Positions 3,804 through 51,846 of a stretch of DNA of 64,000 bases are shown here, piece after piece. This DNA is from Candidatus Micrarchaeota archaeon. Its GTDB lineage: Archaea; Micrarchaeota; Micrarchaeia; Anstonellales; Anstonellaceae. Below the pieces are notes generated by a model. It had not been told where the DNA came from, searched no databases, and was given only the letters and a program-made list of their open reading frames with translations. The first letter of the stretch is position 1; each line of letters opens with the position of its first letter. Position numbers and translations under genes: made by a program. The DNA is taken from the NCBI GenBank assembly GCA_026414185.1, contig JAOAJL010000002.1:11075-75074 (forward strand), in the 5' to 3' direction.

Positions 3804-4457
3804 ATGAACAGGTTTGCAGTCCTGGCAGAGGGCTTTGAGAGGCTAAGCTATCCCCTTGGAGCCTGCTCTTCTTATGACAAGCAGGAAATATACTTCAATA
3901 GGGAGGAATATGTCCTTCACAGGCTGGAGGGGGAGGCGCAGGCAAGGATGCTTCTTGGCAGCGCTGATTGGATTTCCAGCCACGCCTCCCTTCCAGTAGG
4001 ATTTGTCCAGAACGCGTCCGGAAGCTTCATAGTCTGCCGGCCAAGGGGCAAGAAACCCTCCTCCTCCGAGATGGACAAAAACCAGCGCAGGGAGTATTCC
4101 CTCGCCGTCATGCTCCGGCTTGCGCAGCTTCATAGCGAGGGCTTCGGCTGCGGAGGAATCTGGCCGCATGAAACATTCTATTTCAGAAAGGAGGTGTTCC
4201 TTTCCAATCCAGCCTCCATATTCGCCCTCTGCGAGCAGGACTCGCTTTTTCACGAGGCGGCAGTCACCCTAAGAAGGCTCCTTTGCGCCGGCTTTGCCAG
4301 CCAAGCCCGGCTCTCCGCCCTTGCCGGCGCCTATCTTTCCCACTCGCCAGTCTGCCGCAATGAAGTGCGCGCTTACCTTGAATCAAAAAAATCAGAAGTC
4401 CTTCCCGCCGAGGCTCTTGCCGCCGCAGCACGAAAATACGCGGCGCTCTTCCTTTGA
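3804..4457 (+). CDS. hypothetical protein (217 aa)
   Basis: Begins 13 nt after the preceding ORF. The stretch LAQLHSEGFGCGGIWPHETFYF faintly resembles the catalytic-loop region of small archaeal kinases but lacks the H-x-D motif. Function not assignable. Confidence 0.55.
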   Translation: MNRFAVLAEGFERLSYPLGACSSYDKQEIYFNREEYVLHRLEGEAQARMLLGSADWISSHASLPVGFVQNASGSFIVCRPRGKKPSSSEMDKNQRREYSLAVMLRLAQLHSEGFGCGGIWPHETFYFRKEVFLSNPASIFALCEQDSLFHEAAVTLRRLLCAGFASQARLSALAGAYLSHSPVCRNEVRAYLESKKSEVLPAEALAAAARKYAALFL

Positions 4458-4461
4458 CGCC

Positions 4462-6765
4462 CTAGCGCTGCAGCTGCACCTCTGTCCAGCGGTTTTTGTT
4501 CTTGTCGCACAGGAGAAGATACACCGTTCCCTCCACGTTTTCAGCAAGCGCGGAGTCATGCGTTATGACAATCGTCTGCTCCACAACAGAGGGTATCTTC
4601 CTGCTTATTGCCTCTGAGAGCATGCCGACCGCCTCAGAGTCAAGGTTGTGGGTGGGCTCGTCAAGAATAAGGATGCCTATGTCCGGCGTGAGGACCGCCG
4701 CGAACGCTATCCTGAGGCTGAGGCAGAAGCAGGCGCGCTCTCCCCCGGATGCGACAGCATCAACATCCTTCCACTGCCCGCCCTTTTCCATGATGAAGCG
4801 GTAGTCCTTCTCATCAGCAGAAAGCATAACCCCGCCGTAGTCGGAGTAGGGATAAATTGAGGGCCAGATTTCGCGGAGGGCGGAGTTTATCTCCTCCACC
4901 AGGCTTGCGCGAAGCTCGGACTGGGCGGCGGCAAGCGCATTTTTGTATATTGCCATGCTCTCCGCAGCTCGCGCATATCCCTCAGCGATTCTTTTTCTCT
5001 CATTTATGCGGTCCGCCTCCTTTCTCGCAGAGGCGCAAAGCTCATCCAGCAGCTTTACCTGCGAAGAGACGGAGGAAAGCTCCGAAAAGAGCCGGGAGGA
5101 TTCAAGCCGAGCCTGCTCCGCCTCCTTTCTTGCTCTCTCATAAGCCTCCTCCGAAAAGCCCATTGCAGAAAGCTCCGAGGCAGCCTGCGCATATTTTGAA
5201 ATCGTGGCTTCAAGCGAATCAAACAGCCTCTTTTGAGCCACAAGCTCGTCAAGCGACTTTCTTGCCTTCTTTACTTTCGCGTCAAGCGCCTCAGCTTCCG
5301 CCTCAGCCGCAGAGAATTCCTCTTCAAGCTTTTTTACCTGTTTTTCCTTCTTGGCAATCTCCTGCAGATAGGGCGCCTCATCAACCCCCTCAGCAGAGAG
5401 CTTCTCAAGCTCGGAAGTCAAAAGGGCGGCTTCATAAAGCGCTTTCTGGCATGCCTCCAGCGCTTTTCTCTGCTTTGCCGCCTCCTCCTCCGCTTGCCCC
5501 AGCCTTTCTTTGTTTTGCGAAAGCATCCTTTTCTTTTCAGCGGCTATCTTCTCCTTCTTTTCAGGCGCAAGCTCGCTGCCGCAAACAGGGCAGTTTGCAG
5601 AGGCTGAAGAAAGCGCCTCAAGCGAGGCGGAAATCGCCTTCTGCTCCTCAGAGAGCCGCGCCCTCTCCGCCAAAAGGGAGTCAAGCCTGCCGGCGAGGGT
5701 CCGCAGCTTGGCTTCCATCTCCTCCTTGCCTTTCCCTTCAAGCAGGCTGGCAAGCTGCCTGGAAATCTGCTGAGCTTTTTTCGCCCTCTGGGCTGCGAGC
5801 TTTCTTCCGTTTTCAAGAACTGCAATTTCGCTTTTGACGGCTGAGATGGAGGCGGAAATCTCCTTGAGGCGCAGGCGCGCCTTGAAAACGAGTTTTTCCG
5901 CCTCTTCGTTTTCCTTCTCAAGCCGGCAAATGTCTTCCTCAGACGGCTTGCTTTTGCCGGAAACCTCTTTTTCAAGCCCAACTATTGCGCCTTGCAGGCG
6001 TTCGCACTCGCTCTTCTTTTTCCCGTAGGCTTCCCTTTGCTTTTCCAAGACGCCAAGCCCCTCCTCTTTCTGCGCAACAAACCTCTCCGCCTCAGCCTTC
6101 TGCGCAATGAGCCGCTGCTGCTCCGCCTTCTTCTCCTCAAGGGAGCGGAGGCGTTCGGCAAGCTCCTTTTCAAGCTGCGCAAGCCTCTCCGAATCGGAAG
6201 GGCTGGAAAGCTCCTGCGCCTTTTCAGAAAGACGGTAGTGCGCATTCTGAGCAGATTCGCGCGCCTCGTCAAACTGCCCAAGCCCAAGCAGCCAGTCAAT
6301 CTCAGTCTTCCGCTGGCGGGGGTTGAGGGACAAAAGATAGTCAATTCTGTTTTGCTCCGAGTAAATCGCGCGGGTAAAAAGCTCGTAATCCACGCCAAGC
6401 ACTCCAGCGACATAGTCGCTTGCCGCCTTTGCGCCCTTCTGCACAAGCCTTCCTTCAAGCCGAACTTCCGCCTCATGCGTCCTCTCGCCTATCCTGCGAA
6501 GCACTGCATAGTGCTTGCCATGGGCTTCAAACTCAAGTTCAACAGAAGCAACTTCCGCCTTGCTTGCCATGCTTATCAAATCAGACAGAGACTGGTCGCG
6601 CCTCTGCATTTTCGGGAAAGTCCCATAAAGCGCGAAGCATATCGCATCCAGAACAGAAGACTTGCCCGAGCCCATCCTGCCCAAAAGCACGCTGGTGCCC
6701 TTGCCGAACTTGAAGCTGGATGAAAGGTGCGATTTCCAGTTTGAAAGCGAAAGGGATATCAGCAC
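4462..6765 (-). CDS. rad50: DNA double-strand break repair ATPase Rad50
   Basis: 767 aa. Walker A is GRMGSGKSS. A long coiled coil carries a central CPVCG zinc-hook. The signature is ASGGERACFCLSLR and Walker B/D-loop is ILILDEPTHNLD. GTG start at 6765. Confidence 0.9.
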   Translation of the reverse strand: MLISLSLSNWKSHLSSSFKFGKGTSVLLGRMGSGKSSVLDAICFALYGTFPKMQRRDQSLSDLISMASKAEVASVELEFEAHGKHYAVLRRIGERTHEAEVRLEGRLVQKGAKAASDYVAGVLGVDYELFTRAIYSEQNRIDYLLSLNPRQRKTEIDWLLGLGQFDEARESAQNAHYRLSEKAQELSSPSDSERLAQLEKELAERLRSLEEKKAEQQRLIAQKAEAERFVAQKEEGLGVLEKQREAYGKKKSECERLQGAIVGLEKEVSGKSKPSEEDICRLEKENEEAEKLVFKARLRLKEISASISAVKSEIAVLENGRKLAAQRAKKAQQISRQLASLLEGKGKEEMEAKLRTLAGRLDSLLAERARLSEEQKAISASLEALSSASANCPVCGSELAPEKKEKIAAEKKRMLSQNKERLGQAEEEAAKQRKALEACQKALYEAALLTSELEKLSAEGVDEAPYLQEIAKKEKQVKKLEEEFSAAEAEAEALDAKVKKARKSLDELVAQKRLFDSLEATISKYAQAASELSAMGFSEEAYERARKEAEQARLESSRLFSELSSVSSQVKLLDELCASARKEADRINERKRIAEGYARAAESMAIYKNALAAAQSELRASLVEEINSALREIWPSIYPYSDYGGVMLSADEKDYRFIMEKGGQWKDVDAVASGGERACFCLSLRIAFAAVLTPDIGILILDEPTHNLDSEAVGMLSEAISRKIPSVVEQTIVITHDSALAENVEGTVYLLLCDKNKNRWTEVQLQR

Positions 6766-11149: not shown

Positions 11150-11223
11150 GCCCTCGTGGTATAACTTGGATAGCATGCGAGCTTGCGGAGCTTGAGATCA
11201 GGGTTCAAATCCCTGCGAGGGCG
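11150..11223 (+). tRNA. tRNA-Arg (anticodon GCG), no intron
   Basis: Hand-folded. Acceptor GCCCTCG/CGAGGGC, anticodon arm CGAGC-TTGCGGA-GCTTG, T arm CAGGG-TTCAAAT-CCCTG, discriminator G. The D stem has one A:C mismatch. Confidence 0.85.
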
Positions 11224-11270
11224 CTTAATATGATGTTGAACGCCCAAGTTCCGCAAAAGAGGTGTTGCCA

Positions 11271-16977: not shown

Positions 16978-18186
16978 CTAGCGGGCTAATTTCGCAATCC
17001 TGCCGAGTGTTTCTGCGAAAGTTTCTATCTCTTCTTCGGTGTTGTAGATGTAAAGGGAAGCCCTCACGGCACCGCCAGGCGCGCCGAGGGATTCCATGGC
17101 AGGCTGGGCGCAGAAAGTCCCAGAGCGCAGGGCAATGCTGGCAAGGCTGTCTGACATGAGCGCTACCTGATGATGAGGCACCCCCGCGATGTTGAAGCAG
17201 GCAAGCGCACAGCGTTTTTCAGGCGATGGGTGACCGTAAAGGACCGCGCCTTTGACGCCGCCAATTGCCTCAATCAGCCTCTTTGCAAGCTTTCTTTCGT
17301 GCTCCTCAACTGCCGCCATCCCTATCCTTGACATATAATCGCAGGCGGCTCCAAGCCCGGCTGCGCCAGCGTAATTTTGTATCCCGCCCTCAAAGCGCTT
17401 TGCGCCCCTTTTCCATCTGACCTGCCCGATTCTCACGCTCTCAATCGTTTCTCCGCCGACAATGAAGCTGTCAAGCCGCTCAAGCGCGTCCTTTTTTGCG
17501 ACAAGGCAGCCTATCCCGGTAGGTCCGCACATCTTGTGTCCTGAGAAGGCAAGGAAGTCCGCCCCAAGCCTCTTGAAGTCAACCTTGGAATGCGCAACTC
17601 CCTGCGCCCCATCCACCAGCACAGCCGCGCCAGCCTCGTGCGCAATCTTCACGATTTTTTCAAGAGGCGCGCGCATGCCGGTGGTGTTGGTGGTGTGGTG
17701 GACGACAACCAGCGCAGTAAGCCGGTCTATGCAATCCGCAATGCCCTCCTCGTCAAAAGTCCCGTCCGGGTTTGTCCTCATCAGCTCCATCTTAGCCACC
17801 CCTCGCCTTTCCTGTTCCATCACAGGCAGGAGGGCGGAGTGGTGCTCAAGGACCGTGGTGACTATCTTCTTGCGAGAAGAGTAATCAAAGGAGCGGATGG
17901 CAAGGTTCAGGGCTTCTGTGGCATTTTTGGTGAAAACCACTCCCTCCGCATCTGCGTTCAAAAACGCCGCCACCTTCTTCCGCGCCTGCTCAAAAAGCTC
18001 CTCTGTCCTTTTCGCAAGCCGGTGGGCGCTCCTTCCGGCGCAGCCTGCCGCTTGCTCATAGTATGCCGCCTCCGCATCAATGACAGCCTTCGGCTTGAGG
18101 GAAGTGCAGGCGGAATCAAAATATATGGCGCCTGTCTTTTGCAACGCAGGAAAATCCTGCCTGATGCGCCTGGCGTCAAGTGCCAT
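16978..18186 (-). CDS. cysteine desulfurase (SufS/CsdA-like class V aminotransferase)
   Basis: HHTTNTTG, LVDGAQGVAH, FSGHKMCGPTGIG (PLP Lys) and RSGTFCAQP (catalytic Cys). Confidence 0.85.
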   Translation of the reverse strand: MALDARRIRQDFPALQKTGAIYFDSACTSLKPKAVIDAEAAYYEQAAGCAGRSAHRLAKRTEELFEQARKKVAAFLNADAEGVVFTKNATEALNLAIRSFDYSSRKKIVTTVLEHHSALLPVMEQERRGVAKMELMRTNPDGTFDEEGIADCIDRLTALVVVHHTTNTTGMRAPLEKIVKIAHEAGAAVLVDGAQGVAHSKVDFKRLGADFLAFSGHKMCGPTGIGCLVAKKDALERLDSFIVGGETIESVRIGQVRWKRGAKRFEGGIQNYAGAAGLGAACDYMSRIGMAAVEEHERKLAKRLIEAIGGVKGAVLYGHPSPEKRCALACFNIAGVPHHQVALMSDSLASIALRSGTFCAQPAMESLGAPGGAVRASLYIYNTEEEIETFAETLGRIAKLAR

Positions 18187-19141
18187 CTCCTCCCCCTGAA
18201 AGCAGCCGCCTTACCTCATTCTCTGCCTCCTTCACCGCGTTTTGCCCTACAAACGGCTTGCCGTTCACAAAGAATGTCGGCGTGCCGTATATGCCGCACT
18301 CCTGGCCCTCCTTTTCGGTCTTCTGTATAAATGACAAAAATTTCCTGCCAGTGTAGCAGGCGTCAAAGGAAGGGCTGATGTTGAGGCGGTGTGCAATCTC
18401 CAAAAGTGCGGCATCACCCCGCCGCATCACGTCAGCCTGGTTCTCAAAGAGCGCTTGGCGGTATTCCCAATACCTGCCCTGCTCCCCGGCGCATGACGCC
18501 GCCAACGCGGCTTCGGTTGAGTGCGGATGGGAGAGGATGGGAAAGGGCTTGAAGACAAAATAAACGTCGTTTCTGTGCTTCTCAAGCATCTCTCTCACAT
18601 CAGACTCTGCCGACTTGGTGTAGGGGCATACATAGCAGCCGAACTCTATCACCACCACCTTTGCGCTTGCGTTGCCAGCAGTTATCCCGTCAAGCGAGCC
18701 TGGCGCTTTCAGAAACGCCGTGTTGTGCAGGCTGTTGTATGCGCAAAAGCCGCCCTGCGGCCCGTTGCAGTTTCCGTATACAGCAAAGTTGTAAATGCCC
18801 GCAAACGCCACTGCGAAGCTTGCGAAAAATATGGCGGCAAAGGCAAGCGAGAATGCCTCAAAGTGCCTGTTTACGAATGAAGCCGCAGCCGGGCTCACCC
18901 TCATTATTCCCGCTATGCTTGCAGCCTTCAGCTCCTCGTCAAGCCCGGTTTCGCACGGTCTGAGAGTGGCTTTGCGCACGGCGCAGTCAAACGCCCTTGC
19001 CGCAAGCGGCCGGTATTTCGCGGAGAAGACTGAAAGAAAAGCAAAAACGAAAAGAGCGACAAAGCAGAGCACCAAGCAAATCACCCAATTTGCGTGCCTA
19101 CCTTGGCGGCTTTGAGTTGCGCCTCCTTTCCATCGCGTCAA
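18176..19141 (-). CDS. membrane-anchored DsbA-like thiol:disulfide oxidoreductase with Cys-containing N-terminal membrane module
   Basis: The C-terminal domain has FGCYVCPY (CxxC) and GIYGTPTFFVNGK (cis-Pro loop). The N-terminal about 130 aa have 2-3 TM helices and paired cysteines (DCAVRKATLRPCE; GNCNGPQGGFC). TTG start at 19141 overlaps the upstream gene. GTG 19087 is an alternative. Confidence 0.7.
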   Translation of the reverse strand: MTRWKGGATQSRQGRHANWVICLVLCFVALFVFAFLSVFSAKYRPLAARAFDCAVRKATLRPCETGLDEELKAASIAGIMRVSPAAASFVNRHFEAFSLAFAAIFFASFAVAFAGIYNFAVYGNCNGPQGGFCAYNSLHNTAFLKAPGSLDGITAGNASAKVVVIEFGCYVCPYTKSAESDVREMLEKHRNDVYFVFKPFPILSHPHSTEAALAASCAGEQGRYWEYRQALFENQADVMRRGDAALLEIAHRLNISPSFDACYTGRKFLSFIQKTEKEGQECGIYGTPTFFVNGKPFVGQNAVKEAENEVRRLLSGGGDGT

Positions 19142-20271: not shown

Positions 20272-21315
20272 CTATTGCGTCCCTCTGCACCTCTGGGTTT
20301 CCGGGTCGCAGCTGCTGCCCGGGCAGTCCTCGTTTGACGAGCAGGTGACCTTGACGCATCTGTAGGCATTTATGGACAGCGGGTCAAGCTCGCAGCGCTC
20401 GTCAAAGCGGCAGTCCGCCTGCTTTGTGCACCATCCCGCCCTTGTCTCGCACACATGGCTTTCCTCGTTGCACTTCTGCCATACGCCGCACTCGGAGTCT
20501 GATGAGCAGAAGCCCCTGCGCGTCTCGCAGCGGTGGGTCTGCAAGTTGCAAGTCTGCCAAGGCTCGCAGTCGCCCGCAATTGAGCAAAGGGAGCGTTTCG
20601 CCTCGCAGGTGTGCTTTTCTGGGTTGCAAAGCTGCCAGCTCCTGCAGTCCTCGTCAGTTTCGCAGAATTGCGGACCAGCAATGCAGCGGTGAAGGGCGGA
20701 GTCGCATATCTGCCAGCCCTCGCAGTCCAAATCATTGTTGCAGAAACCTTCCTTGACAATACAGCGGTTTGAGGAAACGTTGCAAGTCTGCCAAAGCTTG
20801 CAGTCAACATCGCTTGCGCACCTGCCGGCAAGCGGCACGCACTTTTTGGAGGCTAAATTGCAAGTCTGCCACGACTGGCAGTCAAATGCCGAAAGGCAAT
20901 TGCCCGGCTTGGGGACGCAGACGTGCCTTGATGGAGAGCAGACTTGAGTGGCTTTGTCGCAGACATCGTCGCTGTCGCAGAAGCCAGCCTTCGCCCTGCA
21001 GGTGTTGTTCATCGCCAGGTCGCAGCCCTGCCAGCTGCCGCAGTCAACATCGCTTCTGCATCTTCCCGGCAGAAAGGCGCACTTGTGGGTGTTCTGGTCG
21101 CAGATTTTAAGCGGGTCTTTGCAGTCAGAGTCCGCCGCGCAGTAGCCCTCCTTCGTTATGCACTGCTTTTTAGCAGTGTCGCAAGTCTGCCAAGACTTGC
21201 AGCCCCTGTCAGAGCTGCATCCAGAGCCGATGCAGCCTGCCATTAAAAACACAATCAGCACTCCCGCAGTTGCAAACAAGAGCAAGAAACTGCGCACAAA
21301 ACCACCTTCCTTCAC
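20272..21315 (-). CDS. secreted cysteine-rich repeat lipoprotein (12 tandem 4-Cys modules)
   Basis: GTG start with a TATA-like box about 27 nt upstream. Signal peptide with lipobox-like LMAGC. It is followed by 12 repeats of consensus C-x-s-D-x-D-C-x-x-W-Q-x-C-n-x-x-x-h-x-C-x-x-k-x-G-f, 23-29 aa each. Confidence 0.8.
   Translation of the reverse strand: MKEGGFVRSFLLLFATAGVLIVFLMAGCIGSGCSSDRGCKSWQTCDTAKKQCITKEGYCAADSDCKDPLKICDQNTHKCAFLPGRCRSDVDCGSWQGCDLAMNNTCRAKAGFCDSDDVCDKATQVCSPSRHVCVPKPGNCLSAFDCQSWQTCNLASKKCVPLAGRCASDVDCKLWQTCNVSSNRCIVKEGFCNNDLDCEGWQICDSALHRCIAGPQFCETDEDCRSWQLCNPEKHTCEAKRSLCSIAGDCEPWQTCNLQTHRCETRRGFCSSDSECGVWQKCNEESHVCETRAGWCTKQADCRFDERCELDPLSINAYRCVKVTCSSNEDCPGSSCDPETQRCRGTQ
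20293..21219 (-). repeat. 12 degenerate tandem coding repeats of about 78 bp (26-aa 4-Cys module)
   Basis: Seen in translation, e.g. CASDVDCKLWQTCNVSSNRCIVKEGF / CNNDLDCEGWQICDSALHRCIAGPQF / CETDEDCRSWQLCNPEKHTCEAKRSL. Confidence 0.8.
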
Positions 21316-26106: not shown

Positions 26107-26236
26107 GCGACCGTAGTCTAGCCTGGTTAGGATTCGAGATTGCCAGGGCTGGCAGGCAGTTTTTTGCGGAATCGGCCGCAAGAATCTCGCGAGCCGGGTT
26201 CAAATCCAGAATTTGGTGAAAATCCCGGCGGTCGCA
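26107..26236 (+). tRNA. tRNA-Gly (anticodon GCC) with two introns (38 nt at 37/38; 18 nt in T-loop)
   Basis: GCGACCG-TA-GTCT-AGCCTGGTTA-GGAT-T-CGAGA-TTGCCA-[38-nt intron 26146-26183]-A-TCTCG-CGAG-CCGGG-[TTCAAATCCAGAATTTGGTGAAAAT, 26199-26223]-CCCGG-CGGTCGC-A. The intron contains TGGCA, complementary to the anticodon-loop TGCCA (BHB-like). Confidence 0.85.
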
Positions 26237-26270: not shown

Positions 26271-26283
26271 CATTTTAATATTC
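26271..26283 (+). promoter_or_regulatory. TATA-like box of the prepilin-like operon (leaderless first gene)
   Basis: CATTTTAATATTC centred about 27 nt upstream of ATG 26304. Confidence 0.5.
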
Positions 26284-26303: not shown

Positions 26304-26966
26304 ATGGGCAAAGAGGGTTTTATCTTCTCGCTTGACGCCTTCGTGGCTTTCACCCTCATCATGATGACAATAGGGCTTCTGATTTTCACGATAGGAACTC
26401 CAAAGCCCTACTACCCGTCCCTTGAACAGACGCACCAGCTTGCGCACGACACCCTGCGGGTGCTTGCCACAAGCTCGGACAGCCCATCAAACCCGACTTA
26501 TCTTGAGCAGATAATAGGCAGAAGCGGCTTGCCGGTCAATGAGATAATGTATCGCGTGGCAGGGGGCAGGGAAACATCCGCGGAGGGCGGAGGGGTGCGA
26601 TACCGCCCCATCATCCCGAAAGGCTATGGCTTCCGGCTGGAAACCTACGAATTTGGCGCATTCCCCTCCGAGAAGCAAAGGTGGGTTGTGCTTTATGACT
26701 CAAGCGAGGATGTGCTTTCCGACAGATACGGAAAGAAATTTTCAAAGGTCCAGGCATCCGCAACCGCCTTCGGCTCAATATACGCAGTTGCGCCGTTCCA
26801 GGGCAAATCCCCCTTCTGCTACCTCTCTTGCAACGGCTTTGACCCTTCCAACCCGCCCTCGTACAACCTCGTGCCGTGCAACGCAACTCCCTGCGACTTT
26901 CCCATTTCAAATTTCATGGCTGGCAAAAACACCATCCAGCTTGTAAGGTTCGTGGTTTATGCGTGA
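26304..26966 (+). CDS. prepilin-like protein 1 (class III signal peptide), 220 aa
   Basis: Start ATG 26304. N-terminus MGKEG/FIFSLDAFVAFTLIMMTIGLLIFTI. The mature part is unrecognised and has 4 Cys near the C-terminus. Confidence 0.7.
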   Translation: MGKEGFIFSLDAFVAFTLIMMTIGLLIFTIGTPKPYYPSLEQTHQLAHDTLRVLATSSDSPSNPTYLEQIIGRSGLPVNEIMYRVAGGRETSAEGGGVRYRPIIPKGYGFRLETYEFGAFPSEKQRWVVLYDSSEDVLSDRYGKKFSKVQASATAFGSIYAVAPFQGKSPFCYLSCNGFDPSNPPSYNLVPCNATPCDFPISNFMAGKNTIQLVRFVVYA

Positions 26967-28644
26967 TTTGATGAAACCAAAACTCCGCCCCGGATGCATG
27001 CGCGGCTTTTTCTTCACAGTCATGGCGCTTGCTCTCCTTTCCTTCATGCTGCTAAGCGTGCAGCTTTGGGTGCGGACATTTGAGCAGTCGGACGCGCGCG
27101 CTTCACAGCGCTTCAAAGGCGAGGCGATGAGGATTGTACTTTCCTCCATCTCTGACAAGGCAATCTCTGATTTTGCAAATGCCTCTGCCTTCTATGCTCT
27201 ACACAGGCTTGTCAATTACTCCGCATACGAAGGGCTTGCGCAGGCGGATTCCTCAGACCCGCGCAACAACGGCACGGGGATGGTGGAGAAAGGCGTCTAT
27301 CTGCTTATGAGGAACGGCACCTTTGCCGCCGGCTCAAAGGACATAGTCTATACCACTGAGGAGATGGAAGCTTACACATTCGCCGCGTGGCAGAAGAGGA
27401 TTCGCTCCGCGGCAAATGTCCTTGGCTTCAACGCAAGCTTCTCCGAGCCCAGAAACTTCTCCTTTAGGCAGATTGACCACTGGACAGCAGGGGTTTCCTT
27501 CCAGATGGACATGGACATAACGGACTTCGCAGGGACAATGCGCCAAAACAAGACACTATACGCCAACGCCACCATCAGCCTCAGCGGTTTTCTTGACCCA
27601 TATATATTCCGCAACGACATGCGCCAGCGGGTTCCCGCGCCTGCGCCGACCGCGGTTGCTCAAAGGCAGGTTTTCAGGAATCCGAAATACAACTCTGCCT
27701 CTGATGTTGCGCCTCGGCTTGTGGTTGACCAGTTCGGCTCCGACGGAGAGGGCTATGGGTGGTTCTACGGACCGATAACAAACCAGTATCCAGACCAGAT
27801 AAACGAGTCTGCTTTGGGCAAGCTCTCCCAATACATCCTTGTCCATGGCTGGGATGACAGCCTTCCGGTCTACGCGGACTTGTATGGCGCCGTGATAGTG
27901 ACCGACCCGCCGGTCTGGGTGGATGGAGGCACAGAAACGATAGGCAACTGCGTCTACAACGTTTCCACCCAAAGCCGCTGCCTCAACTGCATCCGCCGAT
28001 ACGTCCCTACAACAGCGGGCTGCCCGAACAGGCCAGATGAGATTCTCTCGGAGAACAGAACGGACAAGCCGATGATAGTGGTGACAAGAAGCGCCACTGA
28101 TGAAAACTGGCTGGATTCTATCCCATGGGTCTACAGGGCAGGGCTGCCCTCCCCCGAAGACAGGCAGAAGTTTGTCCTCATTGACAACGAATACGCCCTC
28201 CCAGAGCAAAAGCTCTTTGGCAGCCACAGGCTCTATGACATAACTGCCCTGCGCGACATGGCAATATGCGGTTTTTACGTCCCATCGGAGCAGGCTCCAT
28301 CCTTCTTCCAGCGCATGCTCGCCTTCCCTCCTTCCGAAAGCTCGCATCCCCTCGGGATTGAAACCTTTGTGGTGGGGCAGTGGGCTGGGGGGAAGCTTGA
28401 CCAGTCGCATGACGGGCTTTCTCGCCTTGACTGGGAATTTTATTCCGCACAAGCGCCAGCCACGCAGCCGGCAAGGATAAAGGGTATGCCTGGATGCAAA
28501 AGCGTCCAGATGTGCGACATTTCCAACACGGAGCCGGTCAAAGAAGGGGTGGGCAAGTTCCGGCTTTCCATCGATGCCATAAAAAGATACGGGGTTGGGA
28601 AAATAGCATGCAACAGCCAGAATTCCGCCCCATGCGACAAGTGA
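26959..28644 (+). CDS. large prepilin-like protein 2 (561 aa), candidate pilus tip/adhesin subunit
   Basis: ATG overlaps the gene 1 stop by 8 nt. N-terminus ...PGCMRG/FFFTVMALALLSFMLLSVQLWV. Many N-x-S/T sequons and a Cys cluster (GNCVYNVSTQSRCLNCIRRYVPTTAGCPN). The competing antisense ORF is rejected. Confidence 0.75.
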   Translation: MRDLMKPKLRPGCMRGFFFTVMALALLSFMLLSVQLWVRTFEQSDARASQRFKGEAMRIVLSSISDKAISDFANASAFYALHRLVNYSAYEGLAQADSSDPRNNGTGMVEKGVYLLMRNGTFAAGSKDIVYTTEEMEAYTFAAWQKRIRSAANVLGFNASFSEPRNFSFRQIDHWTAGVSFQMDMDITDFAGTMRQNKTLYANATISLSGFLDPYIFRNDMRQRVPAPAPTAVAQRQVFRNPKYNSASDVAPRLVVDQFGSDGEGYGWFYGPITNQYPDQINESALGKLSQYILVHGWDDSLPVYADLYGAVIVTDPPVWVDGGTETIGNCVYNVSTQSRCLNCIRRYVPTTAGCPNRPDEILSENRTDKPMIVVTRSATDENWLDSIPWVYRAGLPSPEDRQKFVLIDNEYALPEQKLFGSHRLYDITALRDMAICGFYVPSEQAPSFFQRMLAFPPSESSHPLGIETFVVGQWAGGKLDQSHDGLSRLDWEFYSAQAPATQPARIKGMPGCKSVQMCDISNTEPVKEGVGKFRLSIDAIKRYGVGKIACNSQNSAPCDK

Positions 28645-28648
28645 TTTG

Positions 28649-29068
28649 ATGAGAGAGAAAAAGGGCCAGTCCGCAACAGAGCTTCTGGTGCTTGCAGGGT
28701 TCTCAGTAGCCTTCATCCTGCCGCTTGTCTTCCTTTTCATGTCATCCTCCAACTCCGAGCTTGGCAAGACGGCATTTTCCCAGGCAAAAGCAACGACAAG
28801 AACCATCGCAGATGAGGCGGGCGAAATCTACCTTCAAGGATACGGCGCAAAAAAGACAATACTGGTCAATTATCCCCAAGGCGTAATAAACGGCTCGGCG
28901 GAAAACGGCGTGGTTGCCCTTACTGTTGATGCGGACGGCAGGCGGGTGGATGTCCTGTCTGCCACCTTTGCTCCTCTCAAAGGGAACCTGAGCGGAAGAA
29001 GGACCGCCGGCCTGCAGAGGATAAAGATTGAAAACATGGGAGACTATGTCAATGTCACATACGGCTGA
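28649..29068 (+). CDS. prepilin-like protein 3, 139 aa
   Basis: ATG 4 nt after the gene 2 stop. MREKKG/QSATELLVLAGFSVAFILPLVFLF, with Glu at +5 as in type IV pilins. Confidence 0.75.
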   Translation: MREKKGQSATELLVLAGFSVAFILPLVFLFMSSSNSELGKTAFSQAKATTRTIADEAGEIYLQGYGAKKTILVNYPQGVINGSAENGVVALTVDADGRRVDVLSATFAPLKGNLSGRRTAGLQRIKIENMGDYVNVTYG

Positions 29069-29615
29069 GCGCCCGGCAGATGAATTGCGCGCCAGACGCA
29101 CCATTGGCGGTGCGAAAGGGCAGGCGGCAGTGGAAGTCCTATCCTACGCCAGCTTTTTCCTCCTTGGCTTTGTGGTGGCAACCGCAGTCTTCTTTCAGAT
29201 GCAGTCAATTGAGATTTCACGCGCAGAGCATTCCTTTGCGCAGGAGATAGCCTATGAGCTTGCAGACCACATCCACACCGCCTTTGTCGCAGGCCCTGGC
29301 TTTGTTCAGAACGTCACGCTTCCCTCCGATATACTTGGCAAGCCCTACCGGATATCAATAAGCAGAAAGCCATCTACGATGGCGCTGGTGCCGGAAACAG
29401 GCTTTGTCTATGTGGAATGGATGGGGCCGTCGCAAAACTCAAGTTTTTCCGCCCCGACCATCACTTCCTCATATTCTCTTGTTTCCTACTCCGGCTTCAT
29501 AGAGACAAACGCAGAGACGGGATTTATAGAAATAAACCCCGCAGGCTACCCCGGCGGCAGGCCGACCATAAGGATGGAAAACATGAACGGCACAATCAGG
29601 ATTTCAAAGGGATGA
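29046..29615 (+). CDS. prepilin-like protein 4, about 189 aa
   Basis: ATG 29046 or 29052 overlaps the gene 3 end. ...RTIGGAKG/QAAVEVLSYASFFLLGFVVATAVFF, with Glu at +5. Confidence 0.7.
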   Translation: MSMSHTAERPADELRARRTIGGAKGQAAVEVLSYASFFLLGFVVATAVFFQMQSIEISRAEHSFAQEIAYELADHIHTAFVAGPGFVQNVTLPSDILGKPYRISISRKPSTMALVPETGFVYVEWMGPSQNSSFSAPTITSSYSLVSYSGFIETNAETGFIEINPAGYPGGRPTIRMENMNGTIRISKG

Positions 29616-30136
29616 GCATGAGAGGGCAGTATTTTTCATTTGACGCGATTATCGCAACAGTCATCATGGTTATCGCCATGACTTCGCTTGTTTCCTACTG
29701 GTTTGGCACCCAGTCGGTAATAGAGTCCCGCCTGCACTCCCTATATTCGGACGCATCCCGCATTGCAGAATCGCTGCTTTCGCCAGGCTCACCGCCAGAC
29801 TGGGAGAAGCAGGAGTTATACGCTGCAAAGCAGATAGGGCTCTGCTCGGACTTCTCAGGCAAGCTTTCAAAAGAAAAGCTTGAGAGGATGAAGCGGCTCA
29901 TAGGGATAGGCTATTCATCCGCGGGCGATTTTGAGCAAAACTATGCCGAGATTGGCAGGCTTCTGAGGGCAGGCGGCAACTACCTTGTTGTGATTGAGCA
30001 GACTGATGATGCAAGCGGCGTGCTTTACGAATTCGGCAAGCGCTATCCGCAGAACGCGACTGAGGTTGCAGTTGCCCATCGCGGAGCGACCCTTGACGGA
30101 AAGCCGATGCGGATGCGCGTCTTTTTGTGGAGATAA
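29612..30136 (+). CDS. prepilin-like protein 5, 174 aa
   Basis: ATGA start/stop overlap with gene 4. MSMRG/QYFSFDAIIATVIMVIAMTSLVSYWF. The track ORF from 29417 is an in-frame upstream extension inside gene 4. Confidence 0.7.
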   Translation: MSMRGQYFSFDAIIATVIMVIAMTSLVSYWFGTQSVIESRLHSLYSDASRIAESLLSPGSPPDWEKQELYAAKQIGLCSDFSGKLSKEKLERMKRLIGIGYSSAGDFEQNYAEIGRLLRAGGNYLVVIEQTDDASGVLYEFGKRYPQNATEVAVAHRGATLDGKPMRMRVFLWR

Positions 30137-30611: not shown

Positions 30612-32027
30612 ATGAATCTCTCAGACATTTCCTCTACTGCCGACGTGCGCATACCATCCGATCCTCTTCTGCAGGTGATTGGACAGGACGAAGCGGTGAG
30701 GATTGGCAGGCTGGTCGGCTTTCAGAGGCGCCATCTTCTCCTTGTAGGTCCCCCCGGCACGGGAAAGTCAATGCTTGCGCAGGCGATTGCCTCCACTCTT
30801 CCAAAGCCAAGGCAAGAGGTGCTGGTGCTCCACAACCCGGAAAAGCCAGAGCGCCCCCTCATAGAAATACGGACACACCCAGTAAAAAAAACACTGAAGC
30901 AGCCGCAAGGGGAGCTTCTTGACCCGATGATGGTGCCTGCCTTTGTCTCCGAGAAGCTCGGATTTCGGTGCCGCCGCTGCGGCAGGATTTCTTCACCTGA
31001 TGCGTCCTCGTGCTTCTTTTGCGGCGCAGACAAATACAGGCGCATAAGAGGAACCTTTGAGGACCTGCTTGTCGGTCCGGGGGCATTTGACAAAGAAGAG
31101 CGCGTGCACACAACCCGCATTCGCGACGGGCGAGAGGAGCTGATTGTCTATGAGCGCAGGGGCAGCCGGATAGCCCTTCTGACCCAAAAAGAGCTTGCAA
31201 AGATGGCGCAGATGCAGCAGAAGGCGGCATACAAGGTCCTTCTCCCCATTGACCGCTCCCCTTTCGTTCAGGCGACAGGCGCTTCTGAAACCGAGCTTTT
31301 GGGCGATGTGCGCCACGACCCCTACGGTTCGCACCCGCAGATAGGCTCCCTGCCCTACACCCGCGTTGTGCCAGGCGCCATCCACGAGGCGCACGAGGGC
31401 GTGCTCTTCATAGACGAGCTTTCCTCGCTTGGCAGGCTGCAGCGCTATCTTCTTACCGCCATGCAGGACAAGCGCTATCCGATAGCGGGGCGCAACCAGT
31501 CCTCAACAGGCTCCTCAGTGCGCGTTGATGGGGTGCCGTGCGACTTCATCCTCGTCGCCGCGGTCAATTTCAACGATGTTCCGAATATCCTTCCACCCCT
31601 CAGGAGCCGGATCCTCGGGAACGGCTATGAGATTCTGATGAACAGCTACATGCCCGACACAGAGGAAAACCAGCTCAAGCTTGTCCAGTTTTTTGCCCAG
31701 GAGATAGTGCGCGACGGCAGGATTCCGCATGCGGAAAGGGAGGCGATAGAAGCGCTTATCAGCTATGCAAGAAAGAAGGCAAAGGAGATAGACGGGGTTT
31801 CAGGGCTCACCCTGCGCCTCAGGCTTCTTTCAGGCACTATAAAGATGGCAGGCGATCTGGCAGTTTCCGAAAAGCGGAACATGATAAGCGCAGAGGACGT
31901 CAAGTTTGCAATAGCAAACTCAAAGCCAGTTGAGGAGCAGGCGTCTGAAAAATACGGAAGCTGGTTCAAGGCAAGCCAGTCCGACTTCGGCTTCAAGCGA
32001 GAGGCTGGCGGAAGCGAGGTCGGCTAA
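30612..32027 (+). CDS. LonB-like AAA+ ATPase lacking membrane hairpin and protease domain, with Zn-ribbon insert
   Basis: VIGQDEAVRIGRLVGFQRRHLLLVGPPGTGKSMLAQAIA, LGDVRHDPYGS, GVLFIDELSSL, LLTAMQDKRYPIAG, VPCDFILVAAVN and LRSRILGNGYEI match the archaeal LonB ATPase module. CRRCGRISSPDASSCFFCG sits where LonB has its TM hairpin. The protein ends about 30 aa after the AAA lid. TATA-like box about 25 nt upstream of the ATG. Confidence 0.75.
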   Translation: MNLSDISSTADVRIPSDPLLQVIGQDEAVRIGRLVGFQRRHLLLVGPPGTGKSMLAQAIASTLPKPRQEVLVLHNPEKPERPLIEIRTHPVKKTLKQPQGELLDPMMVPAFVSEKLGFRCRRCGRISSPDASSCFFCGADKYRRIRGTFEDLLVGPGAFDKEERVHTTRIRDGREELIVYERRGSRIALLTQKELAKMAQMQQKAAYKVLLPIDRSPFVQATGASETELLGDVRHDPYGSHPQIGSLPYTRVVPGAIHEAHEGVLFIDELSSLGRLQRYLLTAMQDKRYPIAGRNQSSTGSSVRVDGVPCDFILVAAVNFNDVPNILPPLRSRILGNGYEILMNSYMPDTEENQLKLVQFFAQEIVRDGRIPHAEREAIEALISYARKKAKEIDGVSGLTLRLRLLSGTIKMAGDLAVSEKRNMISAEDVKFAIANSKPVEEQASEKYGSWFKASQSDFGFKREAGGSEVG

Positions 32028-33796
32028 ATCTTCCCAAGCGCCCATACAAGCAGCAGCGCGCTTGCAATCAGGATGAGCGGCAGGACAAGCCTCAGAAGCG
32101 CAACGACAGCGTTGATGGTTGAAGTTATTTCTGCAGACTGGCCTGCTCCAAACACCTTTATCCTGAACCTCTCCTCAGCAGAGCCAAACCGCACCTTTTC
32201 AAGCCGCCGCATTGCATCGTAAAACATCCTGCGCACAGCAAGGCAGACATCCCCCCTGCCTTCGCTTCCGAGGGGGTTGAGCACTCCCCGAATGGTGTTT
32301 ATCTGGTGGGTGTCGGTCGTCATCACTTCCCCTTGGCAATCAAAGCCGCACTCGCTGCCAAGCTGCGCAAGAAGCTCGTTGAGCTCTTCGCGAAAAGAGG
32401 GGATTATCCCGTTTGCATCCACAAGAAGGACGGCGCGCATTTTCTTCCCCTTGGCAAACAGGGCAAGCTTCAGTCCGCTTCTTCCAAGCGTTTCCGATTT
32501 GAGGGCGGCGCTTGCACAGCCAAAGAGAAACCTCTCCTGCCTGTCTTGTAGCGAAAAGAGCTTCTCGGTCGCATCCAGCATCTCAAAGCCGATTGGAGAG
32601 CCAACCTCAACAGAGGAGATGTCGCCCGTTTCAGCGTTGTGCTCATCAACCACACAGGCGCTTGCGCAGTGCCTCTTTGCCTTCTCAATGAGGGCAAGCC
32701 CCAGCCCAAAATTCACATCCTCAGTCGTCCTCGGCGCTCTGGTGTAGGAGATGAACGCCGAGTCGTTTATGCGAAGGGCAGAGGCCCTGACGCTTCCGAA
32801 GCGGCAGGAGGGAAAAGAAATCCTCGCATCCGAAAGTTTCAGCCTTGAAATTGCCCTCTTGCACGCAAGGACGACCTTCTCTATTTCCTTTGAGGAAACC
32901 GGGTTGAAGTCGTGGGTGGTGGTGCCGTGGAAGACGAACACCTCGCAGCCATTTCCTGAAAGCGCCTGCGAAATCTGCCAGGTAAACTCGCTTCCGCCAA
33001 GATTTCCGAAAGGCCCGTAGTGGATGTAGGGCACCACAAAAAGCGCCCTGTTTTTCCTCCCCTCAAAGCTCCCAATCCAAACTATGGTTTCCACTTCCTC
33101 CCCAATCTCCTCAAAAGCCTCTTCCAGGTCCTTCTCCCCGTAGAGCCACTGGGAAAGGAACATGGAAAGGGCATCAAGGGAGGAAATCCGCAGGTTCTTC
33201 TTCATCGGAGCGGAGATTATGAAGAAAAGCACATAAAGTGCGGTAAGAAAGACAAAGGAGGCAAGATAGAGCTTTATCAGAAGCTCAGCCGGCTTGGCAA
33301 CTCCCTCAAATCCCCCGCCCCCAAGCAGGAACACGGCGAAAAGAATCATCTGCATAGTGGAAAACAAAAACGCGCTTTTCCGAAAGTCAAACGCAACCAA
33401 AAGGACGAAATACCAAAACACGAAGGCGATGCCGAACCCTATGAAAACGAGGCTTGCCGAGCCGCTCCAGTGCGGAGAGAGAAGCTCGGAGGCAAGGTAA
33501 AACGAGCCGTAGATGACAGCGCTTAGAAAACTAAGAAAGGCTGCGCGTCGGAATACTGCCTTCCTCCTCATCAGAAAAAGGCACAGCGAGGAAAGTATGG
33601 CTGGAAAGCCAAGCAGGAAAATCCCTCTCACCCCGCCTGTAAAGAGGGCGAACGGCTCCGCTCCCCCGCCCACAAGGGACAAAAGCACGCCGAAAAGAAA
33701 CGAAACCGCGAATATCGCAAAGAGGGTTTTGGCAGGGTGCGGAAGCGAAACGAAATAGCGTGTCATTTTCAGCGCTTCCTTTTTTGCCTCCTGCAT
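32024..33796 (-). CDS. large membrane protein: N-terminal polytopic domain plus C-terminal soluble domain and terminal TM (possibly DUF2070 family)
   Basis: 590 aa, about 7 N-terminal helices, soluble region about 230-560, final hydrophobic helix. Family assignment is from memory of the architecture only. The 3' end overlaps the LonB-like gene by 4 nt. Confidence 0.6.
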   Translation of the reverse strand: MQEAKKEALKMTRYFVSLPHPAKTLFAIFAVSFLFGVLLSLVGGGAEPFALFTGGVRGIFLLGFPAILSSLCLFLMRRKAVFRRAAFLSFLSAVIYGSFYLASELLSPHWSGSASLVFIGFGIAFVFWYFVLLVAFDFRKSAFLFSTMQMILFAVFLLGGGGFEGVAKPAELLIKLYLASFVFLTALYVLFFIISAPMKKNLRISSLDALSMFLSQWLYGEKDLEEAFEEIGEEVETIVWIGSFEGRKNRALFVVPYIHYGPFGNLGGSEFTWQISQALSGNGCEVFVFHGTTTHDFNPVSSKEIEKVVLACKRAISRLKLSDARISFPSCRFGSVRASALRINDSAFISYTRAPRTTEDVNFGLGLALIEKAKRHCASACVVDEHNAETGDISSVEVGSPIGFEMLDATEKLFSLQDRQERFLFGCASAALKSETLGRSGLKLALFAKGKKMRAVLLVDANGIIPSFREELNELLAQLGSECGFDCQGEVMTTDTHQINTIRGVLNPLGSEGRGDVCLAVRRMFYDAMRRLEKVRFGSAEERFRIKVFGAGQSAEITSTINAVVALLRLVLPLILIASALLLVWALGKI

Positions 33797-50157: not shown

Positions 50158-50163
50158 TTTTTT
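50158..50163 (+). terminator. oligo-T run after tRNA-Gly(TCC)
   Basis: TTTTTT begins 3 nt after the tRNA 3' end. Archaeal terminators are typically T-runs. Confidence 0.4.
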
Positions 50164-50837
50164 CAGTTTTGAATATAGACGCAGGCGCCGTCCTCATCGC
50201 AGAAAGAAAACGTGTCATACCTTTGCATACAAGTGTTTAGGTAAGATTCCTTGCAAAGGAAATAGTCTAAACAGGTAAACTTCAGTTCTATTTCAGGCAC
50301 CATTACCTGAGTAATCCCTTTTTTTTCATAATAAACTCTCAACTGCGCCTTAGCGTCCTTTACAATTGAATTAGCAGAGGCACTTCGGCCATATAAGCGC
50401 GGCTTGTTGCAGATAGAATCGTGGGATATCTGGATAAAAACAGATTCGGAGGTAGCTAGATTTATGCTACATCTTCCGATACAGCTAAAAGGCCCAATGA
50501 CAACGTGCTGCCAGTCGTCATAACTTTTTTGGTTCCCGTAGCGAATTTCACTTGCATTTCCGTTTACCGTAATGTTCAGAATCTTTATTGGGTAAGGTTC
50601 GTTGTTCACAACCCTGATAACCAGCGTATCTTGAGCATTATTGCCAATCCGTATGACAGAACCGTAAGCCTCAAGAATGCCAATCGGTCTGGCGCTTCTC
50701 CAGTAAGCCTCTGACTGCAATTGGCTGATTTCCCCGGATTTTCCTGCCGAGGAAATCACAAAAGAAACAGCAGCAATCCCGATAATCAATATTGCTCCAA
50801 GTATAAGAAGATATTCAGATGAGCCTTGCGCCTTCAT
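50163..50837 (-). CDS. prepilin-like protein (class III signal peptide) with Cys-rich C-terminal region, 224 aa
   Basis: MKAQG/SSEYLLILGAILIIGIAAVSFVI...SEAYWRSARPIGIL. C-terminal CLDYFLCKESYLNTCMQRYDTFSFCDEDGAC. Lower GC than surroundings. TATA-like box about 31 nt upstream. Confidence 0.75.
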   Translation of the reverse strand: MKAQGSSEYLLILGAILIIGIAAVSFVISSAGKSGEISQLQSEAYWRSARPIGILEAYGSVIRIGNNAQDTLVIRVVNNEPYPIKILNITVNGNASEIRYGNQKSYDDWQHVVIGPFSCIGRCSINLATSESVFIQISHDSICNKPRLYGRSASANSIVKDAKAQLRVYYEKKGITQVMVPEIELKFTCLDYFLCKESYLNTCMQRYDTFSFCDEDGACVYIQN

Positions 50838-50964
50838 ACCCTCCCTTTTTTGCTTATGGCAATAAAAAAGTTGACCTTACTTGGCCTTCCCACTCATCAT
50901 CACCATTTATAAACCATTTGCCACAAAAAGAAGGCAGTTGTGCTTTTGTTGAGAGGTGAAAAAC

Positions 50965-51846
50965 ATGAGGATGGCATTTGTAGCATTCGTTTTGCTCGTG
51001 GCGCCTGCCATATTAAGCGCAGGAGTGCTGACGCAGATGACAACTGCCTTTTCATATGTCGGCTATCCGTGCAACAGCCACGGCATAGACACCATCAGGC
51101 TGGCAAATGCGCCTGGCGATGTTCCTTGCGACCCTAATACTGACTGGTATTATTACTGTGCCGAGGTCATCCGCCTCAACTCAAGCAGAATCAACTCTTT
51201 TGGAGGACCTGGGGACGTCCTTCCCGGCAACTATTACTTCACCACTATCTATATTGACGTCATAGGCAGGACCGTGGAGCTTAACGAAACCCTCTCTGGA
51301 GTACAGGACAGAAACGCGCCAAAGCACCTCTGGCGCCCGCGCGTTTTTGCTAAACTGCCGACAAGGTCATGCTTCAACTGGGAATACCTGGAATTCAACA
51401 ACCCGCAAAGCATCATAGCATTTATTCCCGCAGGCAACAACTCCACAGGGCAGAAAGGCGGCTTTTACCTCACAAACGAATCCATCGGATTTTACACTCC
51501 TGCGGACTCAATGGAAGCGGTTGCCGGCGGCGAAACGGACATGCCCTCTGTGGATGTGAAATCAGACGCAGGAATAATTCTGAAGGAAATCGGCACAGAG
51601 CCTGCCTACGCAGCAATACGCCTTTATAACCTTGGCGCGCAGGGCTGGGGCTTCAAAAAGTCCAACTCCGCCTTTGACATGATGTTTTACAAGTGGACGG
51701 GCTGGAACCAGTTCCAGACTGTGCCCATGCCGTTTACCACCGAGCGCGGAACCTACTTCCCCAAGAACCCAACCTACAACCAGACAAACTTTGACATCCA
51801 GCTTTACTCCAGCCTTTCAGCAGGACCGCGGGCGTCAAAAAGATAA
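50965..51846 (+). CDS. secreted hypothetical protein (293 aa)
   Basis: ATG 50965 lies 5 nt after GAGGTGA. Signal peptide MRMAFVAFVLLVAPAILSAG. Rich in Asn/Thr/Tyr/Gly with paired Cys near the N-terminus. No family recognised. Confidence 0.7.
   Translation: MRMAFVAFVLLVAPAILSAGVLTQMTTAFSYVGYPCNSHGIDTIRLANAPGDVPCDPNTDWYYYCAEVIRLNSSRINSFGGPGDVLPGNYYFTTIYIDVIGRTVELNETLSGVQDRNAPKHLWRPRVFAKLPTRSCFNWEYLEFNNPQSIIAFIPAGNNSTGQKGGFYLTNESIGFYTPADSMEAVAGGETDMPSVDVKSDAGIILKEIGTEPAYAAIRLYNLGAQGWGFKKSNSAFDMMFYKWTGWNQFQTVPMPFTTERGTYFPKNPTYNQTNFDIQLYSSLSAGPRASKR

Follow-up and report, generated by a model that had tools for sequence, protein, structure and literature searches.

A conserved five-gene operon of prepilin-like proteins in Micrarchaeota: a candidate minor-pilin-like set encoded apart from filament assembly genes

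The stretch of DNA analysed here, a 64-kb window of contig JAOAJL010000002.1 from Candidatus Micrarchaeota archaeon, encodes five overlapping or near-abutting co-directional open reading frames (ORFs) on the plus strand, termed O1 to O5, which together fill positions 26304-30136 and whose products all have prepilin-like N-termini. An original prediction, made from the nucleotide sequence without database searches, had drawn attention to these genes as a possible uncharacterised pilus or pseudopilus module of a small-genome archaeon. A reading of the ORFs recovers the same five genes with the same coordinates and N-termini, and the organism does belong to the DPANN Micrarchaeota. O1 (26304-26966) codes for a protein of 220 aa that begins MGKEG↓FIFSLDAFVAF... 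(the arrow marks the putative cleavage site). O2 (26959-28644) specifies a large subunit of 561 aa, or 557 aa if read from the ATG at 26971, with the N-terminal motif ...MRG↓FFFTVMALALL.... It is followed by two smaller proteins that have Gln at +1 and Glu at +5, namely O3 (28649-29068; 139 aa; MREKKG↓QSATELLVLAGF...) and O4 (29046-29615; 189 aa, or 176 aa from the TTG at 29085; ...GGAKG↓QAAVEVLSYASFF...). The last gene, O5 (29612-30136), codes for 174 aa, or 172 aa from the ATG at 29618, and its product (MSMRG↓QYFSFDAIIATV...) combines Gln at +1 with Asp at +6.

The tight coupling that had been described for these genes holds at each junction, with the qualification that O2, O4 and O5 have alternative starts. 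The stop codon of O1 (TGA, 26964-26966) is either overlapped by an O2 starting at the ATG at 26959 (8-nt overlap) or separated by 4 nt from an O2 starting at the ATG at 26971, the latter being the start annotated by NCBI. Another 4-nt gap separates the stop codon of O2 from the O3 ATG at 28649. O4 has three candidate start codons, of which the ATGs at 29046 and 29052 both overlap the stop codon of O3 (29066-29068) and the third is the TTG at 29085. O4 and O5 are joined by an ATGA overlap (29612-29615), and the NCBI start of O5 lies slightly downstream, at 29618. An identical 12-mer, GTGATTTGATGA, comprising a stop codon, TTTG and ATG, is found at both the O1/O2 (26962-26973) and the O2/O3 (28641-28652) junctions. 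Its presence at both favours the NCBI start of O2 at 26971, and it may constitute a re-initiation context. Upstream of O1 the TATA-like promoter box pointed out in the original prediction is indeed present as an AT-rich element, 'cattttaatattc' (26271-26283, plus strand), about 27 nt 5' of the O1 ATG. Of 26 orthologous loci, 21 have a TATA-like octamer centred between -24 and -34 of this ATG, whereas random positions taken from these loci yield one in 2.6% of cases. In light of the gene coupling and the conserved TATA-like box, the five genes look like a single operon with a leaderless transcript, as far as can be judged from the nucleotide sequence.

Directly 5' of the operon promoter lies an intron-containing tRNA gene with two insertions (26107-26236, plus strand), one (about 40 nt) in or close to the anticodon loop, the other (about 19 nt) in the T-loop region. 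It matches the Rfam model RF00005 over its full length (34.1 bits, E 1.8e-5) and was missed by ARAGORN, whose only tRNA call in the window is a tRNA-Arg at 11150-11224. From the sequence of its loop it is possibly a tRNA-Gly(GCC).

The N-termini of the five proteins follow a common plan. Their leaders are 3-15 residues long, with K/R near the end and G/A at -1, and are followed by F (O1, O2) or Q (O3, O4, O5) at +1. A short basic leader with G/A at -1 and K/R at -2 or -3 is seen in all five window proteins and in their orthologues from about 30 loci, save that in a few orthologues of O1 the K/R lies farther ahead of the putative cleavage site. A hydrophobic stretch of 20-25 uncharged residues follows each of these motifs, and a rule-based scan returned a mean Kyte-Doolittle hydropathy of 1.8-2.2 over positions +2 to +22 with no charge past +6. 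The consensus across all loci is [KR]x[GA]↓F[IV]FS[LV]DAF[VI]AF for O1, [KR][KRG]G↓F[FLV]FT for O2, [KR][GA]↓Q[AST][AGST]xE for O3, [KR][GA]↓QAAxE..xY for O4 and [KR][GA]↓QYFS[FLA]D[AV] for O5. In distant lineages the leaders have shrunk to forms such as MKG↓Q, MRA↓F and KKG↓F.

The residues that remain invariant throughout are F+1, F+3, S+4, D+6 and A+7 in O1, G-1 and F+1 in O2, which has no acidic residue at +5/+6, and Q+1, Y, F, S+4 and D+6 in O5. The Glu at +5, noted earlier in two of the five proteins, is present in O3 and O4 and is, along with Q+1, invariant in their orthologues (24 for O3 and 26 for O4). More generally, the first approximately 25 residues of the mature proteins are strictly conserved. 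Class III (prepilin-type) signal peptides have their cleavage-type motif before the hydrophobic segment, and Sec signals have it after this segment. Hence, the position of the conserved motif indicates a class III rather than a Sec layout, and together with the invariant residues and the structure models described below, it supports the assignment of the N-termini of O1 to O5 as fitting predicted class III signal peptides. Among such signals, the substrates of the methanococcal EppA peptidase are characterised by +1 Gln and +5 Glu in a KG↓Q...E pattern (PMC4371748); this combination, after [KR][GA], is found in O3 and O4, whereas O5 has only the +1 Gln and O1 and O2 have neither.

We found O2 to be 100% identical to a hypothetical protein from Candidatus Micrarchaeota archaeon, N3E51_01125, encoded on a contig of 105.8 kb, and O5 corresponds to N3E51_01140. 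None of the 95 O2 homologues recovered bears a name or a Pfam domain; where taxon labels are given they read Micrarchaeota, Micrarchaeia or Anstonellaceae, with one exception labelled 'uncultured archaeon'. A scan of one genome per species yielded 31 loci, all from Micrarchaeota bar one 2.7-kb contig binned as Planctomycetota. Across the approximately 30 related loci examined, with sequence identities of 26-60%, the gene order is constant: BLAST comparisons revealed O1 to O5 to be collinear in every one of the 28 loci with enough flank, O4 of locus L005 being assigned by position only, and O1 orthologues are present in 30 loci. Two more distant loci reached via O5, L037 (from an 'ainarchaeum sp.') and L038, match the five genes one-to-one with profile E-values of 1e-22 to 1e-78. 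In a third, L039, the order is kept as judged by gene sizes, and its O5 has a full Pfam DUF7287 match. On this metagenome contig (4989-8510) O1 is seemingly split into products of 128 and 74 aa and O2 into products of 352 and 177 aa; these splits could be frameshifts, sequencing errors or pseudogenisation.

The collinearity in all related loci, coupled with the conserved G/A↓F or G/A↓Q junctions, constitutes a pattern far beyond chance. The flanking genes are kept among close relatives only and are wholly different between distant ones. Searches with an O5 profile recovered 1882 cluster representatives at E<=1e-3, few of them named, and those from Micrarchaeota (Anstonellales, Bilamarchaeaceae). 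When extended outward from O5 toward other phyla, the searches gave named matches that were all from Micrarchaeota bar the one 'ainarchaeum sp.'. A tblastn search of plasmids with O5, aimed at annotated haloarchaeal DUF7287 genes, returned nothing usable.

Confident AlphaFold2 models, built on alignments of the orthologues, were obtained for O2 and O5. The model of O2 (predicted local distance difference test score, pLDDT, 85; predicted template-modelling score, pTM, 0.77), has a helix spanning residues 15-63 that leads into a large alpha/beta head. In that of O5 (pLDDT 89, pTM 0.75), a helix spanning residues 7-55 precedes two short helices and an antiparallel sheet of four strands. Both proteins are thus predicted to have an unbroken N-terminal helix, some 49 residues long, topped by a globular head with a beta-sheet, an arrangement that in these models is the 'lollipop' architecture of type IV pilins. 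This bears out the helix-plus-sheet organisation expected of prepilin-like proteins. Profile-profile comparisons further established a paralogy between O3 and O4 that extends through the mature sequence (hhalign 98%, E 1.6e-13, 100 columns); O1 and O5 share only their N-terminal 39 columns (hhalign 92%).

In its mature part O2 carries 11 N-x-S/T sequons and 9 Cys, of which eight are invariant and the ninth nearly so among its ten closer homologues. Three motifs of O2 are also invariant: RDMAICGFY, GPSFFQRM and GIESFVVGxWAGG. O1 has four conserved Cys in its C-terminal part. The Cys residues of O1 and O2 and the sequons of O2 would fit extracellular, probably glycosylated proteins. The window also codes for two DsbA-like proteins (Thioredoxin_4/DSBA) and a thioredoxin, with N-terminal hydrophobic anchors, at 18176-19141, 60686-61240 and 61242-62165 on the minus strand. 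These Dsb-like proteins suggest extracytoplasmic disulfide-bond formation, which is consistent with the numerous Cys-rich surface proteins, O1 and O2 included.

The original prediction had described the mature domains as unrecognisable. This stands insofar as profile searches found no characterised family, and no known pilus family among them; it does not stand entirely, as three weak profile matches recur. O5 is matched by DUF7287 (PF23958) over its full length with 20.5 bits (E 7.7e-4), below the 27-bit cut-off of the family, which also matches 4 of 26 O5 orthologues (E<=0.01) and 4 of 43 distant representatives (E<=0.001); precomputed PF23958 matches exist on several O5 relatives or cluster representatives. 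O4 is matched by DUF7266 with 14.1 bits (cut-off ~27), as are 4 of 26 orthologues in the mature region (best E 1.8e-4). O1 is matched by DUF7262 with 12.9 bits (E 0.16; cut-off ~27), as is a single one of 24 orthologues (E 0.0027). These three DUFs are the sole recurrent profile matches of the operon proteins, and while specific they are sub-threshold for the window proteins and confined to a minority of orthologues. For O2 and O3 no Pfam family recurs; isolated matches fall below the cut-offs, those for O3 being single-member matches among 24 orthologues. NCBIfam returned nothing for the operon proteins, and among the papers searched none names DUF7261, 7262, 7266, 7287, 7288 or 7289.

Beyond Pfam, a Foldseek search of the PDB and BFVD with the O2 model gave no match at E<=1e-3 (TM-scores <=0.12), a search of the PDB with the O5 model gave none at this E-value either, and profile searches of PDB sequences with O1, O3, O4 and O5 recovered no relative. 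In the modelled form, then, the heads of O2 and O5 resemble nothing characterised. Several hits were set aside. Foldseek matches to RNA polymerase beta, NTF2-like domains, ribosomal uS3 and phage ERF are at chance level (TM-score <=0.26), and the PDB-sequence matches to rhodopsin and NuoJ are transmembrane-helix noise. A T2SSM match to O3 (E 0.03), the sole hit of the operon proteins to a T2SS or pilin family of Pfam, was likewise dismissed as chance-level because it is absent among the O3 orthologues.

The operon structure, the phylum-wide gene order, the signal-like motifs, the helix-plus-head organisation, the paralogy of O3 and O4 and the absence of linked assembly machinery are best accommodated, in our assessment, by a stand-alone, Micrarchaeota-specific minor-pilin-like set that would be assembled in trans into an initiation or tip complex, a reading that we regard as probable on balance. 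According to this proposal, each precursor would insert in the membrane via its N-terminal hydrophobic helix, and a prepilin (class III signal) peptidase encoded elsewhere would cut the leader after the conserved G/A, exposing Phe at +1 of O1 and O2 and Gln at +1 of O3, O4 and O5. The helices would then be pulled out of the membrane by a TadC platform protein and a type IV filament ATPase, likewise encoded elsewhere, and by packing helix against helix the five subunits might form an initiation or tip complex of the minor-pilin kind. In the stoichiometry and order envisaged, the large, disulfide-rich and probably N-glycosylated O2, with no acidic +5/+6 residue, would sit distally as a cap or adhesin, and O3/O4 (with E+5) and O1/O5 (with D+6) would connect it to a filament of a major pilin encoded elsewhere. 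The most plausible role of such a structure in these host-dependent archaea would be attachment to the host cell or to a surface.

Several observations weigh against this reading. The first pertains to the signals themselves: the Pfam model for class III signals, PF04021 (Class_IIIsignal; QXSXEXXXL motif; cut-off 23.7 bits), matches none of the 50 O3 and O4 orthologues at E<=0.05, such that these two proteins lie outside formal membership of the family despite their Q+1/E+5 motif. Second, Foldseek searches of the PDB with O2 and O5 found no solved pilin or pseudopilin resembling their heads (TM-scores of 0.26 or less). Third, the proposed arrangement of the subunits and the adhesin role of O2, plausible as they may be, are drawn by analogy. 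Finally, the operon has no genomic link to an assembly machinery, either in the window or in the flanks of the related loci. As the original prediction had it, no T2SSE-type ATPase, T2SSF/TadC platform or A24 peptidase was detected in the 64-kb window by Pfam scans, which covered plausible coding ORFs >=150 aa, and none of the unassigned ORFs of the window resembles a polytopic peptidase or platform protein. Regular-expression scans for T2SSE Walker A and A24-type GxGD[x]K motifs across about 700 kb of flanks of related loci revealed no machinery gene either, and the nearest 10 kb or so around each of these loci contain no gene for an assembly ATPase, platform protein or prepilin peptidase.

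What the motif scans did pick up in these flanks was limited to Rad50, an ABC ATPase and an unrelated membrane protein of 905 aa. Two ATPases of the window were considered as pilus ATPases and ruled out. One is a HerA-type helicase (DUF87; 810-2528, plus strand), which adjoins Rad50: it belongs to a DNA-repair cluster (810-6765) along with a Rad50/SMC-like ATPase with a zinc hook (4462-6765, minus strand). The other is the AAA+/Lon-like gene at 30612-32027, whose product has Mg-chelatase/AAA domains and not T2SSE.

A machinery acting in trans is nevertheless in keeping with what is reported for archaea. ATPase/TadC modules in archaea often use pilins encoded in trans (PMC4858521, section 11), and archaeal clade 1 loci have at least five minor-pilin-like class III proteins, with the major pilins being small stand-alone genes (PMC4858521, section 9). 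Within the same phylum, the cultivated Candidatus Mancarchaeum acidiphilum (Mia14) has a CpaF-type ATPase with two TadC genes, a second ATPase/TadC locus and one FlaK-like peptidase, and its type IV pilus parts are described as 'key components ... shared by many Ca. Micrarchaea' (PMC5498576). A 2026 census also places type IV filament (TFF) system 1 in DPANN (bioRxiv 10.64898/2026.04.22.720090).

A bolder version of the proposal, which we put forward only tentatively, would see in O1 to O5 a dedicated heteropentamer, either the tip of a pilus or a short pseudopilus, with which Micrarchaeota make contact with their hosts throughout the phylum. Either of two type IV filament machineries might power it in trans, and the O2 head, disulfide-stabilised and of no known fold, might bind a host receptor as an adhesin or else form a conduit or uptake element through which host DNA or metabolites pass. 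Such a heteropentamer, if real, would found a new family among archaeal tip complexes, one lacking any solved relative.

The strongest competitor, which we nonetheless judge unlikely, is that the class III-type N-termini do not belong to filament subunits at all but to a cell-envelope complex held in the membrane by the N-terminal helices, whether cleaved or not, and involved in surface-layer (S-layer) anchoring or a fixed cell-cell contact site, on the model of the archaellum stator proteins ArlF/ArlG or the Sulfolobus bindosome proteins. Such a complex would suit an operon that is single-copy, phylum-wide, situated amid housekeeping genes and never linked to an ATPase or TadC, as well as head folds that differ from those of solved pilins, and non-pilus class III signal proteins are known in archaea (PMC4371748; bioRxiv 10.64898/2026.04.22.720090). 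It does not sit as well with the E+5 that never varies in O3 and O4 or with the strictly conserved stretch of roughly 25 residues at the start of the mature proteins, the pattern that helix packing in a filament core would give, or with the make-up of one large and four small subunits, which matches minor-pilin sets. Moreover, archaeal pilins whose genes lie apart from those of their ATPase and TadC are common (PMC4858521, section 11).

Rather improbable, in our estimate, is the alternative that O1 to O5, or a subset such as O3/O4, are the major subunits of a heteropolymeric Micrarchaeota filament. The universal conservation of the operon, the small size and E+5 paralogy of O3 and O4 and the lack of a small major pilin gene in either the operon or the window would be explained thereby; yet five dissimilar proteins in a fixed 1:1 gene arrangement, one of them of 560 aa, are atypical of major pilins, the genes of archaeal major pilins often stand alone (PMC4858521, section 9), and the window codes for two more Q+1/E+5 proteins outside the operon. 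That the N-termini are instead ordinary Sec signal anchors or uncleaved transmembrane helices, with a superficial likeness to prepilins, is very improbable: no Pfam pilin or class III family scores above threshold, and a crude scan for hydrophobicity picks up ordinary signal peptides of other window proteins as well, but the G/A↓F or G/A↓Q junction precedes the hydrophobic segment in five families across about 30 loci, the leaders go down to 3 residues, in the models one helix, about 49 residues long, starts in the hydrophobic part and continues unbroken into the head, O3 and O4 are paralogous, and O1 and O5 share their N-terminal segment.

The two further Q+1/E+5 proteins of the window are predicted class III signal proteins encoded on the minus strand, one of 224 aa (50163-50837; MKA↓QGSSEYLLILGAIL...; PF04021 E 6e-4, 20.1 bits) and one of 233 aa (51859-52560; MKA↓QGSSEYLMLLAAVL...; PF04021 E 7.4e-4, 19.8 bits), both scores being below the 23.7-bit cut-off. 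They are paralogues (31% identity, E 1e-16) that begin alike with MKA↓QGSSEYL..., and hhalign aligns the 224-aa protein remotely with the O3 family (87.5%, E 3.6e-6, 88 columns). Both have Cys-rich C-termini. Their genes flank that of a secreted 296-aa protein (50956-51846), adjoin an Lrp/AsnC regulator (52549-53070) and fall in the only low-GC patch of the window (50-52.6 kb; 0.48-0.50 against ~0.54). This pair could supply the filament itself or alternative subunits, or could belong to a variable island.

The window also encodes a 347-aa secreted or anchored protein with about ten Cys-rich repeats of the form C..W[QE].C[DN]... (20272-21315, minus strand; DUF5885, E 1.9e-15), and a 672-aa protein of the NHL-repeat / six-bladed beta-propeller type (57135-59153, plus strand). 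A short overlapping frame near the 3' end of the latter gene (58971-59153) specifies a strongly hydrophobic stretch; if this frame is its C-terminus, the propeller is likely to be a surface protein.

Just 3' of the operon lies a gene for a 471-aa Lon-like AAA+ protein (30612-32027, plus strand) with Mg_chelatase, AAA_5 and Sigma54_activat domains, in which no protease domain was detected, followed by a gene for a DUF2070 membrane protein (32024-33796, minus strand). The AAA+ gene is found near the operon in 14 related loci and the DUF2070 gene in 16, the latter also near the distant loci L005, L028, L031 and L034. This is probably a conserved chromosomal context rather than a functional link. 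In three distant Micrarchaeota lineages, L001 (7426-9400), L037 (4937-6825) and L038 (4683-6551), the genes 5' of the operon code for a CarS-like protein and an NfeD/Peptidase_S49 (ClpP-class) membrane protease; in L037 and L038 there is a third upstream gene, whose small product (116-126 aa) contains Cys and is secreted or membrane-bound. The window lacks this upstream neighbourhood.

Micrarchaeota are ultra-small, host-dependent DPANN archaea whose attachment to, and exchange with, their hosts are largely unexplained. Pili-like connections have been seen in them by microscopy and, to our knowledge, no components have been assigned to these. In this context, the operon offers concrete, testable candidates for the host interface of the Micrarchaeota, including an extracellular subunit of 560 aa with a confidently predicted fold that matches no solved structure, and five families now labelled 'hypothetical' would gain annotation.

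Comparable arrangements are known in both bacteria and archaea. The GspH-I-J-K genes of the type II secretion system (T2SS) and the FimU-PilV-W-X genes of the type IVa pilus (T4aP) offer an analogy in having four or five pilin-like subunits per operon, and GspK, like O2, is much larger than its partners and has no conserved acidic residue. These bacterial complexes are thought to prime and cap the fibre. No similarity to them was detected in sequence (O1 and O3 to O5 against the PDB) or in fold (O2 and O5), and unlike the bacterial minor pilins and pseudopilins, O1 to O5 have an archaeal-type signal and genes that do not lie beside the machinery. ArlF/ArlG and the sugar-binding proteins of the Sulfolobus bindosome share with O1 to O5 a prepilin-like N-terminus, unrelated heads and genes located away from the assembly genes; no homology to them was detected, and they do not form a conserved five-gene set with E+5 paralogues.

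Closer parallels come from archaeal pili. The minor pilins of the Epd pilus of Methanococcus maripaludis (EpdA-D; clade 1 / system 1) resemble O3 and O4 in their [KR][GA]↓Q signal and +5 Glu, the likeness between EpdB-E (KG↓Q; PMC4371748) and O3 (KG↓QSATE) or O4 (KG↓QAAVE) being one of described motif and not of aligned sequence. Epd-type systems and the operon are also alike in having at least five dissimilar minor-pilin-like genes (PMC4858521, section 9). Unlike the Epd proteins, O1 and O2 have Phe at +1 and O5 is without E+5; and while the Epd genes form an 11-gene cluster with an ATPase, two TadC genes and the EppA peptidase, O1 to O5 stand alone. Mia14 encodes a run of seven consecutive class III signal proteins (MIA14_0254-0260), of which one is labelled 'component' rather than pilin (PMC5498576, Supplementary Table 2). 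This run lies directly 3' of ATPase and TadC genes, none of which is found near O1 to O5 in the window or in the approximately 30 related loci. No Mia14 protein is among the named best-scoring matches listed for O2 and O5, most of the listed matches being unnamed, so that its absence is not established by this.

With clade 1 minor-pilin sets (PMC4858521) and the Mia14 run (PMC5498576) already reported, the interpretation as a tip complex is less novel than the original prediction implied: the archaeal class III signal and minor-pilin-like gene sets are of a known kind, and runs of class III 'pilins' have been noted in one micrarchaeon. What is new is the exact set of five genes, in an order conserved across Micrarchaeota and uncoupled from machinery, and the five unannotated families that it comprises, with the modelled heads of O2 and O5 having no match among solved structures. 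If the proposed reading is correct, the operon would add to the catalogue of archaeal type IV filaments a stand-alone minor-pilin set encoded away from the machinery that assembles it.

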